DNA of 63,191 bases, the filler included, from Reclinomonas americana ATCC 50394 (Eukaryota): assembly GCA_048213135.1 (NCBI GenBank). It is 11 parts of 4 records of this genome, joined end to end, with 100 filler letters (N's around TTAATTAATTAA, not from the genome) between each part and the next. Parts side by side here need not be neighbours in the genome. Positions count along the whole stretch, not along the records: positions 3,949 to 8,028 come from PS015664.1; positions 8,129 to 17,263 come from PS015664.1; 9 more parts are not named here. One strand, written 5' to 3'. The number at the start of each line of letters is the position of its first letter. Positions within the stretch are counted from its first letter, which is position 1. Below, piece after piece: positions 6,824-9,927 of the stretch. The notes beneath the pieces were generated by a model. It was not told where the DNA came from, searched no databases, and was given only the letters and a program-made list of their open reading frames with translations. The position numbers were made by a program, and so were the translations under genes.

Positions 6824-9800
6824 TCATTCAACAACCATCGTGAACTGCCCGCACGCCTCACGCAGTGCACGCATACCGTCGAGCACCTCCTGCGCTGTCG
6901 GTCTGTCGCGTCGCACGCTCATGCACCGCATGCCGAGCTCAAACATGGGTTCTGCGATGCGCGGCAGCCACTCCACACTGCCATCCACCAGCTCCATGGG
7001 GCGGAGGGCTGTGGCAGAGCGATCCCATTCCGCCGACCACTCGGCCACCGCGGACACCGGCTTGCCAGTGACGAGCTGCGTCAACACAGCGCCCACGCCA
7101 TACACGTCGTTCTCCGGATGCGGACGTCTCACGCGCAGGGCGAGAGGGTCCATGTAGTCCAGCGAGCCGGCGGCGGTGGTGGTCTGCGCGGTGAAGAAGA
7201 GAGAGAATATGAGTGCGCGCGTCCTTGAAAGAGGTGCAGGAGGAGCATGCACACCTTGCCATCGACAATGGACCGCGCGATGCCAAAGTCACCGAGGCAG
7301 GACTCCAGGCGGTGATCCAGCAAGATGTTGGAGGGTTTAATGTCGCGATGTACCACCTCGTTCTGCGGCGTGGTGGTGAGAACGGAGGAGGAATTGCGAA
7401 ACACGACACGACATGCACAGACCTGGTGCAGGAACGCCACAGCCTCGGCCAGGCCGAGTCCGATTTGCACGCGCTGTATGACAGAGAGCGGCGTGTGACC
7501 GGCGCGGGGTGGCAACAGGAGCACGTCTTCCAAGTTGGGCACCCTGCGTGGCAAACACAATGAGAGCGGGGACGACAACAATCTCAGAAAATGGAGAGGG
7601 CGGCACGTACTCGAGCGCCTTGTACACGAGGCAGCGTGCCTTGTCGTCGCCCACTGAGTAGCCCACAAGAGGGACGATGCGGCGGTGGCGGAGGCGCCCG
7701 AGGGTGCTGACCTGCAAAGGATGAAGTGAGCTCTCGCGTGTGGAGCGGTAGCAGAGGGGAAGACAGACCTCGCTCTCAAACGACTCCATCGTCCACGGTG
7801 CATCGGGGTCGAGTACCTTGATGGCCACGTGCATCTCGTGGAGGATGGAGATGTACACAGCGCCCTGGCCGCCCTCGCCGACCTTGAGGCGGGAGGAGAA
7901 TGAGCTGGTGGCGTGCACGATCTCGGCCCAGTCGAAGCGGCGGACCGAGGTGTCGACTGTGCAGGGGAGGGAGAGGGAAATGAGGAGAGGGAGGAAGAGA
8001 GAGAGGGAAGGAGGAGGAAAGAGGGGAANNNNNNNNNNNNNNNNNNNNNNNNNNNNNNNNNNNNNNNNNNNNTTAATTAATTAANNNNNNNNNNNNNNNN
8101 NNNNNNNNNNNNNNNNNNNNNNNNNNNNGGGAAAGAGGGAGAGGGAGAGGGAAAGAGGGAAAGAGGGAAAGAGGGAAAGAGGGGAAAAGACAAAGAGGAA
8201 AGAGGAAAGAGGGCAAAAAGGGAAGAGGAGAAGAGTGACGAAGAGTAAAAGGGAAAAGAGGATAGAGAGAAGGAGGGCAACAAGTGCAGCGCAACCTCTG
8301 CCTTCGTGTCTCGCTGCTCCCCTACTCTCTCCTTTCATCCCCTCCTCCTCCTATCACTGGCTGCTCACTTTCCCATCCTTTTCCATCCCCCCCTCTCCCT
8401 CTCTCCCTTTTCTTCCCCTCTTCCCCTCTTCCGACCTCCATCACGCACTCGCTGGACGCACAAACCTTGCGTGAGGAGGAGATCCTCGCGGAGTTGAGCG
8501 ATGCACTGATCCTTCTCCTCGATTTGACGGGTGGCCTCTTGCAGGCGGGCGGTGAGGTCGCTCACGCTGAGGTGCGCAGCGGCAAGTTGCTGGTCGTGAA
8601 GTTGTTGGGCGGCCAGCAGCCGATCTCGGTCAGAGACGGCAGCGTCGTGCAGTAGTTGAAGGTCGTCGATGACTGTCTGGTCCTGTTGCGCTTGTTGCTC
8701 GGCGGATGCCAGCTGCTGCTGCAGGGCTGCAACCTGGGCGTCCTTCTCTTCCAGTTGCTGCTGCATGACCTGGAGCCGACCGTCAAACTCGGCAGCCTCC
8801 TCGTGCAGGCGGGCTTCGAGCTCGGCAATGCGCGACAGCTGTGCTGCGTCAGCGGACGATGAGCCTGCGGTGACAGTGCCAGTTACAGCAAGTTGGCGTG
8901 GGCCAGCGAGGTCTTCGATGCTGTTGACTATAACGAGGATGACTGTGTGAGTGCATGCAGTCGGTGAGCAATGAAGGAGTAGGGAGTGGCAAACGTACCC
9001 TGCACAGTCTTGTCACTGCTTCCACTGATGATGAACCGACCATCGGGGGTGACGGCGACACAATCCACTCTGTGGCCGCTGACGTGACCCGTGAACCGCC
9101 GAACTTGTTTGCCACTCGCCAGCGACCACACTTGCACAATGCTACCGCTGCCGCTCACGATGTGCTGCCCGTCGGGAGTGACAGCAACCGACATCACCCA
9201 TTCAGTGAGCTGTGGAAAGTGCCGTTCTTCGCCAGTGGCGATGGACAGCACTCGAATCAAGTTGGCAGAGTCGCCAGTCACAATGTGCTGACCGTCGGGA
9301 GTGATGGCAATCGAAAAGACGCACGTGTGGGCAAACCCTCGGAACTGGCGCACCTCCTCGCCCGTCACCAACGACACTCGCACCACACCCTCATGCCCAC
9401 CGTACACAACGAGCTGGCCATCGGGAGTGATCGCCACAGCTCCAATAGAGTTGGAATGCCCCTCCCATCGTCGCACCTCCTCGCCCGTCGCCAGCAACCA
9501 CACTCGCACCGTATGATCGGTGCCTCCACCACTAACCACATGCCGCCCATCAGGCGTAACAGCCACCGCATTTACAGAATGCGTAGCCACATGCATCCGT
9601 CGCACCTCCGCGCCACTGGCCAGCGACCACACACACAGAGTGCAGTCCGAGTTTCCGAACACGACGTGCTCCCCGTCGGGAGTGACAGCCACACAGACAA
9701 CATTATGCGTGCGCTCGTCACACAGTTGCACTTGCTCGCCACTGGACAGCGACCACACGCGCATGGTGTTGTCCGAGCTGCCGGTGACAACGAGCTGTCC

Positions 9801-9927
9801 ATTGGGAGTGACGGCCACTGCGCGGACAGTGGCAGTGTGGCCTTTTATGACCTATTCAATGTTTGGCGCGCGCATTAAGTGAACGAGTGTGTAATGCAGG
9901 AAGCAAAGAGAATACCTTTGTCGCCAT
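6824..9927 (-). CDS. WD40-repeat (about 7 blades) + coiled-coil + RLK/Pelle(IRAK)-like protein kinase fusion
   Basis: Exon 1 MATK (ATG 9927) splices to VIKGHT...WD40 repeats...KTVQ|V-NSIEDL, then a coiled coil ending [39 protein letters not shown]. Kinase motifs follow: [49 protein letters not shown]...RRDRP. Splice phases are consistent; one intron crosses the linker gap at ~8030-8130. Confidence 0.8.

Follow-up and report, generated by a model that had tools for sequence, protein, structure and literature searches.

Introduction

Resistance proteins of the Triticeae such as Sr43, Lr9, Pm4 and WTK4 are kinase fusions or tandem kinases, in which a kinase has been repeatedly fused to unrelated domains proposed to act as integrated decoys (PMC10260397); decoy binding has been reported for WTK4 (bioRxiv 2025.08.26.672365). 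In the former article, kinase-fusion resistance proteins are called apparently unique to Triticeae. A second related system is represented by the fungal HNWD NLRs (HET-E, HET-D), which carry WD40 repeats of high identity with few hypervariable positions (PMC12222747). Kinases of the receptor-like kinase (RLK)/Pelle group are already known outside plants and animals, in apicomplexans (PMC10916322), chlorophyte and glaucophyte algae have 1–7 RLKs (PMC10868138), and an IRAK4-type kinase has been inferred in the last eukaryotic common ancestor (bioRxiv 2020.01.27.920793). We describe here a gene of the protist Reclinomonas americana ATCC 50394 (assembly GCA_048213135.1), lying in a stretch of 63,191 nucleotides hereafter called the window, which encodes a WD40 propeller, a coiled coil and an RLK/Pelle-type kinase in one protein, together with the lineage-specific family to which it belongs, whose members all carry the same fixed coil-kinase cassette and differ in the exchangeable head at the N-terminus.

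Plant and animal RLK/Pelle/IRAK kinases may owe their immune role either to common ancestry or to convergence, and infection sensors in free-living protists are hardly known. The family makes this question testable, as its heads can be expressed singly and its housekeeping-gene copies point to proteins that effectors may target. In the literature searched, which left outside most subscription journals, the main reviews on RLK origin and supplements, we found no kinase family of this sort described from a protist. Among 120 annotated profile hits and 32 scanned proteins, no WD40- or ankyrin-coil-kinase was present, which is weak evidence of absence since the 150 listed representatives are mostly multi-kinase proteins.

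The Window Gene

The window gene encodes a soluble WD40–coiled-coil–RLK/Pelle kinase. Its model spans 9927 to 6824 on the minus strand (all positions count along the whole window), with eight exons and seven introns, all GT..AG, and its spliced translation gives 734 aa with a single terminal stop; the phase-consistent splice path from propeller to kinase put forward in the original prediction, which had been made from the DNA sequence alone, is thus real. Exon 1 (9916..9927) contributes the ATG and the residues MATK, and is followed by a 64-nt GT..AG intron of phase 0. A divergent neighbour begins head-to-head at 10006 (+), 78 nt away, leaving scant room for extra 5′ exons and thus favouring the proposed gene start. 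Exon 2 (8999..9851) encodes a seven-bladed WD40 propeller, in agreement with the approximately seven blades first claimed: seven stretches match PF00400 (E 4.5e-51), and AlphaFold2 predicts a seven-bladed fold (pLDDT 84, pTM 0.85) which Foldseek aligns to 5yzv with a TM-score of 0.92. Exon 3 (8466..8927) yields a linker of ~25 aa and then a coil of ~130 aa (residues ~314–442) with a heptad pattern, ending in the family junction motif, a tail common to the paralogues; the coil had been correctly recognized, its length of ~150 aa overstated. The second junction of the gene lies at 8999/8927, not at ~8997/8925 as first proposed.

The remaining five exons encode the kinase. Exon 4 (7769..7956) carries the pre-kinase helix with its TxxF motif (residue 450), the Gly loop (GEGGQGAV, 469), VAIK (486) and the helix-C Glu; exon 5 (7611..7711) extends up to the LVY gatekeeper (LVYK, 533); exon 6 (7423..7543) comprises helices D–E; exon 7 (7255..7362) holds the catalytic loop HRDIKPSN (584) and DFG (604); and exon 8 (6824..7183) contains the activation loop (TTTAAGS), YMDPL lacking the APE glutamate (GSLDYMDPL, 621), the C-lobe (RDRP, 707) and the stop. 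Every hallmark motif quoted beforehand is present in the product, and Pfam Pkinase matches its kinase pieces with E 2.4e-9 and 5.7e-6. The stop stands directly after the kinase, and neither a RING pattern nor a U-box was found 3′ of it, either here or in those family copies that were fetched. The 734-aa product shows no transmembrane segment (maximum Kyte-Doolittle average over 19 residues, KD19, of 1.29), consistent with the intracellular location that had been claimed, and Pfam found no NACHT or NB-ARC domain in it; its N-terminus is a WD40 head with no death domain. The kinase is under purifying selection, with a median ratio of nonsynonymous to synonymous substitution (dN/dS) of 0.146 against 73 paralogues.

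The coil was modelled as a parallel in-register homodimer with a score of 0.55, the best of three controls scoring 0.00; the runs agree in ≥97% of contacts, with pLDDT ≥90. On eukaryotes, the mark adopted for such dimers is reached by 17 of 29 solved pairs and by none of 30 single chains, and by just 1/7 of the solved pairs without an older solved relative, so that the model supports self-pairing rather than demonstrating it; it agrees with the dimerising coil of the original prediction.

The coil and the kinase are joined across a gap. The window holds ten placeholder gaps at sites 3849 to 61303, each consisting of a 12-nt linker with stops in all frames between two runs of 44 N, and gene models across any of them need independent support. 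One of them (100 nt, 8029–8128) lies in intron 3 (7957..8465, minus strand, phase 1, with purine/pyrimidine tracts), so a scaffold mis-join could have brought the propeller and coil of one copy together with the kinase of another. The unknown size of the gap and the tandem arrangement of the family would allow for it, and the length of the intron (509 nt including the gap) counts against our gene model, as it exceeds all 90 paralogue junctions (maximum 157 nt). On the opposite side, the coil-tail donor motif lies ≤157 nt from the first kinase exon in 90 of 148 loci, with N between in only one, and the equivalent phase-1 intron of the paralogues is short and gap-free; exon 3 ends in this donor motif in the family phase; the gap is flanked on both sides by the same pyrimidine tract (0.98 and 1.0 C+T); each kinase exon is present once only within the window; and the window kinase comes last in the grade of WD40-headed kinases and is not part of the ankyrin radiation described below. 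Moreover, gap-free WD40-coil-kinase genes exist on contigs C3616, C328, C12 and C98. As gap-free paralogues share both the coil-kinase junction and the whole layout, the join across intron 3 is, judging from the sequence, probably correct, and we regard the mis-join as very unlikely.

Kinase Class

The original prediction had named a kinase phylogeny as a check of its assignment to the RLK/Pelle clade. In a 63-row kinase tree, whose reference labels we assigned with the help of source names and Pfam, the 17 family rows form one clade (100/100) placed inside RLK+IRAK (97/93), not outside it, the outgroup being thin (nine bacterial kinases and a single non-RLK TKL kinase of the same genome). The family is sister to, not within, the ten RLCK-IXb rows (receptor-like cytoplasmic kinases, RLCK), a pairing which is unsupported (86/59). 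Among the best 60 of the 494 PDB sequences matched by the family profile, 58 are RLK/RLCK/IRAK kinases, five of them bearing generic names and presumably belonging to these classes, and PknB comes next; RLK/IRAK are thus the nearest of the solved kinases in this set, ahead of Raf, MLK, RIPK and LRRK. A clean family hidden Markov model run over 270 fetched proteins gave, as top single domains, plant Usp- or TPR-coil-kinase-U-box proteins (186–203 bits), among them P0205, P0247, P0261 and P0223, which we take to be RLCK-IXb / PUB-VI U-box kinases. The three approaches agree on RLK/Pelle membership, and the likeness to plant coiled-coil RLCKs initially noted is also borne out. The proteins matched in profile searches were plant RLKs, tandem kinases and bacterial kinases; the top representative, P0121, was dismissed as a repeat-inflated plant-like artefact, and a word-index search with exon 8 gave no match at E ≤ 0.001.

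A Tyr gatekeeper is an RLK/Pelle trait, and LVY is conserved in 113 of the 115 five-exon kinases of the family, together with VA[IV]K (111), HRD..N (111) and DFG (112). Furthermore, a helix with a TxxF motif ahead of the kinase domain (FSYEELEKATxNF) has been put forward as a superfamily marker (PMC10916322); the window kinase has both, and TxxF[SA] occurs in 90/91 close copies and in 8/24 distant ones, whose matched pieces often begin later. By its sequence, the window kinase is thus classed as an RLK/Pelle kinase; it is probably no RLCK-IXb member, and it is not a death-domain IRAK.

A Kinase Family with Exchangeable Heads

A search of the same genome with one kinase exon gave 238 candidates, 150 of which were scored (all with E ≤ 1.9e-12, on 103 contigs), tandem arrays being common. 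Family size is thus a lower bound of at least 150 loci, and a second query adds ~30 kinase loci not included in the head counts. No pair among 73 genes has a proportion of synonymous differences (pS) below 0.02, so that these genes are not allelic copies. Heads were scored from the upstream DNA of 148 loci, leaving out the window copy and one match at a contig end: 117 are ankyrin, nine WD40, one has both and 21 neither. The latter comprise three TPR, two further WD40, and one each of weak LRR, USP7, UEV, Rho GTPase, second kinase and weak ArfGAP-like heads (the last with E 0.016 and an incomplete splice path); the other ten could not be assigned because of gaps, contig ends or too short a segment of upstream DNA. 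No Usp domain was found among the scanned family heads. The gene is thus not a singleton; the original prediction, whose architecture and kinase class are retained, had missed that it is one of many related loci with swapped heads, among which WD40 is in the minority.

In kinase trees six WD40-headed kinases form a basal grade, the ankyrin radiation has the window kinase as its sister (95/88), and the USP7-headed copy is nested among ankyrin-headed kinases (95/87); a single clade for the six WD40-headed kinases was weakly rejected (approximately unbiased test, p-AU 0.033). In addition, two kinase subfamilies 47% alike bear ankyrin heads 65% alike, which are intermixed in the tree (few starred branches). 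Taken together, these patterns indicate that heads have been exchanged on a fixed coil-kinase cassette, and the window copy is best explained as an older member with a WD40 head, to which the ankyrin radiation is sister.

Several members deserve separate mention. At L076 (G000:C360:147855-153041) a WD40 open reading frame (ORF) lies directly 5′ of an ankyrin-coil ORF and kinase, either as a two-head gene or as an adjoining WD40 gene. Three WD40-headed kinases (L042:1532-3094, L049:2571-3524 and L130:994-2199) apparently start MGA(N/D)ES or MGARSS, which would make N-myristoylation possible, as in plant RLCKs. A tandem-kinase member on C12 has a TKL kinase C-lobe and the coil in one exon. The tandem-kinase member (L188:4-750 and L041) also shows a helical region before its first (DLG-type) TKL kinase; neither Pfam nor the PDB supported reading this region as MLKL-like.

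Heads Derived from Housekeeping Genes

Three of the singly found heads are duplicates of host genes, and for each of them the genome has retained the parent gene; this does not apply to the window copy, which has a repeat-domain head. On C102, USP7 is present with its MATH, catalytic and UBL domains, its C-terminal domain and the coil sharing one ORF; the Cys box of the fused copy reads NQGATAS, the catalytic Cys being replaced by Ala, and that of a 70% identical copy on C9309, known only as a match and a pattern match, reads NQGATCY. On C175, a UEV head that is 79% identical to a complete TSG101 on C46 and shares its exon borders is spliced in frame to coil and kinase; a search with TSG101 gave a single fungal match at 39%, which says nothing of lineage. 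The Rho-family head on C3071 reads GNPTVGKT at G1 and DTAGVEDF at switch II, both changed, lacks the CAAX end, and its C-terminal half is spliced in frame to the coil; a canonical Rac-type gene is also present in the genome. Despite a divergence of 20–40% from the parents, the exons matched for USP7, UEV and Rho are open. Apart from these, loci L157 and L158 (G000:C192, C6455), which are near-identical, contain more diverged USP7-like C-terminal domains (32–40% to the fused copy).

A WD40 Pool Common to Kinases and NLR-like Genes

The WD40 type of the window gene is abundant in its own genome (3679 candidates, 137 scored) and occurs in three chassis: NACHT-pentapeptide-WD40 genes, stand-alone WD40 genes that end in a short motif or "box", and the coil-kinases. 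When repeats are pooled, kinase, NLR-like and box genes share the same WD40 consensus and the same variable columns, and the window WD40 has 58–59% identity with the WD40 arrays linked to NACHT on C340, C4860 and C979.

Stand-alone WD40 genes constitute a third large family drawing on this pool. They have one exon with repeats of this type, often lie in tandem, and are found in the window at 25710-26930 (-), 61317-62513 (-) and 62579-63190 (-) and elsewhere at L165-L186. They end in a conserved motif of ~50 aa (LARQEL..AR.AM..VQEMQ...RCLPE.VLRCF), which had no Pfam or Atlas match and which we presume to be an adaptor resembling an F-box or SOCS box.

Selection on the Ankyrin Heads

The ankyrin binding face changes fast and the kinase is conserved. 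In 73 ankyrin-headed genes, variety is highest at turn and first-helix positions, reaching up to 3.6 bits at positions of the binding face. Over 22 independent pairs, dN/dS at 18 face codons, whose positions we assigned from the ankyrin/DARPin consensus as we assume it to be, is 1.51 with their own dS and 2.57 with background dS, compared with 0.47 and 0.36 at other ankyrin codons and 0.10 and 0.12 in the kinase; none of 10000 random position sets was as high as the face codons.

These values bear on a neutral birth-and-death scenario, in which recombination or mobile elements would have copied the cassette into the 3′ ends of other genes, most heads being accidents and the face signal reflecting relaxed constraint plus gene conversion. 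Several features agree with it: taken over all sequence pairs, the dN/dS of the 42 ankyrin sites with the greatest variety is just 0.94; partial copies and loose C-lobe fragments of the kinase occur in the genome; the housekeeping heads are all singletons; and the fused USP7 and Rho lack key residues, as would decaying duplicates. It does not account for the 111 of 115 five-exon kinases free of stops in their matched exons, with HRD kept in 111/115 and DFG in 112/115, nor for a kinase dN/dS of 0.10–0.15, the open USP7, UEV and Rho exons despite their divergence, or a variety limited to the binding face. We deem such a neutral origin quite improbable; even if it, or a housekeeping role, were the case, the family would still show clearly how one kinase cassette captured domains again and again.

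Other Genes in the Window

The divergent neighbour, 10006-16321 (+), has coiled-coil exons and no Pfam match; its product presumably resembles CCDC13, a centriolar/ciliary protein, by its motifs, which would fit a flagellate. A convergent neighbour at ~3900-6268 (+) encodes an APH-family phosphotransferase (PF01636, E 0.0013), which we take to be hydroxylysine-kinase-like. At 17509-18597 (-) and 58125-59312 (-) lie a G-patch gene (PF01585) and a 396-aa Ser/Thr/Gly-rich ORF without a Pfam match, respectively.

Proposed Non-Self Sensing and Its Alternatives

We cautiously favour the view that the family consists of cytoplasmic non-self sensor kinases, working like the kinase-fusion resistance proteins of cereals. 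The coil would hold two kinases together; a foreign protein (from a virus, an intracellular bacterium, prey or a non-self cell) would bind or modify the head and shift the dimer, and in the shifted dimer the RD kinases would be able to signal after phosphorylating each other on the Thr-rich activation loop. Heads made of repeats (ankyrin, WD40, TPR, LRR) would serve as variable binders, whereas those copied from housekeeping genes would be integrated decoys like the ones of cereals; viruses and bacteria often target USP7, TSG101 and Rho proteins. The case for such a role is stronger from the family than from the window copy. A wider proposal, which we advance tentatively, is that a free-living microbial eukaryote independently built a kinase-based immune repertoire from a mobile coil-IRAK/Pelle cassette, hypervariable repeat binders of the NLR pool, and captured USP7, TSG101 and Rho, targets of pathogens, as dead decoys.

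Several points weigh against the proposed sensor role. The position of the APE glutamate is never E in the 115 five-exon kinases (L in 86, M in 17, others in six, no match in six), and this family-wide absence leaves kinase activity unproven. As for the ankyrin face, its positions were picked after the entropy profile had been seen, so that the test is not blind; pS of the face codons is raised (0.345 vs 0.18); the own-dS ratio is 0.88 in the five closest pairs, with no face change in the two closest; and gene conversion confounds the counting of pairs. Among the 148 loci no housekeeping head was found more than once, as neutral shuffling would also give, and the Rho-headed copy is truncated by the contig end after two kinase exons. 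Of 26 propellers compared, that of the window gene departs furthest from the pooled consensus (0.53, a value derived from the four blades caught by the pattern, vs 0.66–0.80), and from its sequence it may be decaying.

Alternatively, these proteins could be ordinary cytoplasmic signalling kinases, whose heads target one kinase to machines of the own cell with no non-self recognition: UEV to ESCRT, the pseudo-USP7 to ubiquitin substrates, and Rho and ArfGAP to actin or membranes. Pseudo-enzymes commonly serve as scaffolds, the kinase is strongly conserved, and several WD40 members start MG(A), a possible lipid anchor; besides, the IRAK4-type kinase inferred for the last eukaryotic common ancestor has left much-duplicated descendants (bioRxiv 2020.01.27.920793). 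Such targeting would not predict more than 100 ankyrin copies with near-saturated face variety (up to 3.6 bits) on a fixed scaffold, nor tandem arrays and a WD40 pool in common with NACHT proteins, and we consider it unlikely. Should the wider proposal above hold, IRAK/Pelle kinases would be linked to the sensing of non-self in an organism that is neither plant nor animal, and the heads would list what the parasites of this cell attack.

Comparison with Known Systems

Like animal IRAK1/IRAK4, the family combines an assembly module at the N-terminus with a soluble RD kinase and has a TxxF motif, and IRAK1 is the top PDB match of one paralogue (E 5.8e-15, N-lobe aligned). Unlike IRAK/Pelle, it has no death domain and assembly would proceed via the coiled coil; at least 150 loci are present here, vs 1–4 IRAK/Pelle genes in animals (PMC10868138). 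The plant RLCK-IXb/PUB-VI proteins (Usp or TPR-coil-kinase-U-box) resemble it in having the coil directly before the kinase, in being soluble, in giving the best-scoring single kinase domains, and in a near-identical pre-kinase motif (KFEWEEIVSATSSFS in P0261), and differ from it in that the family has no Usp, no U-box/RING and no APE glutamate, and bears many different heads.

With the fungal HNWD NLRs the genome shares the pattern of its pooled WD40 repeats as well as the presence of NACHT-pentapeptide-WD40 genes. The window gene differs from them in lacking NACHT, in having the propeller N-terminal to coil and kinase, and in repeats far less alike than repeats of high internal conservation (HIC), with an identity of 0.53 to the consensus. 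Regarding the Triticeae kinase fusions, the available part of PMC10260397 describes no shared fixed coil for them, and the decoy-like heads found here are ubiquitin, ESCRT and GTPase proteins. On the other hand, a tandem-kinase member, as in Triticeae, also belongs to the family of this genome, and if the wider proposal is true, the kinase-fusion/integrated-decoy strategy of cereals would extend to protists.

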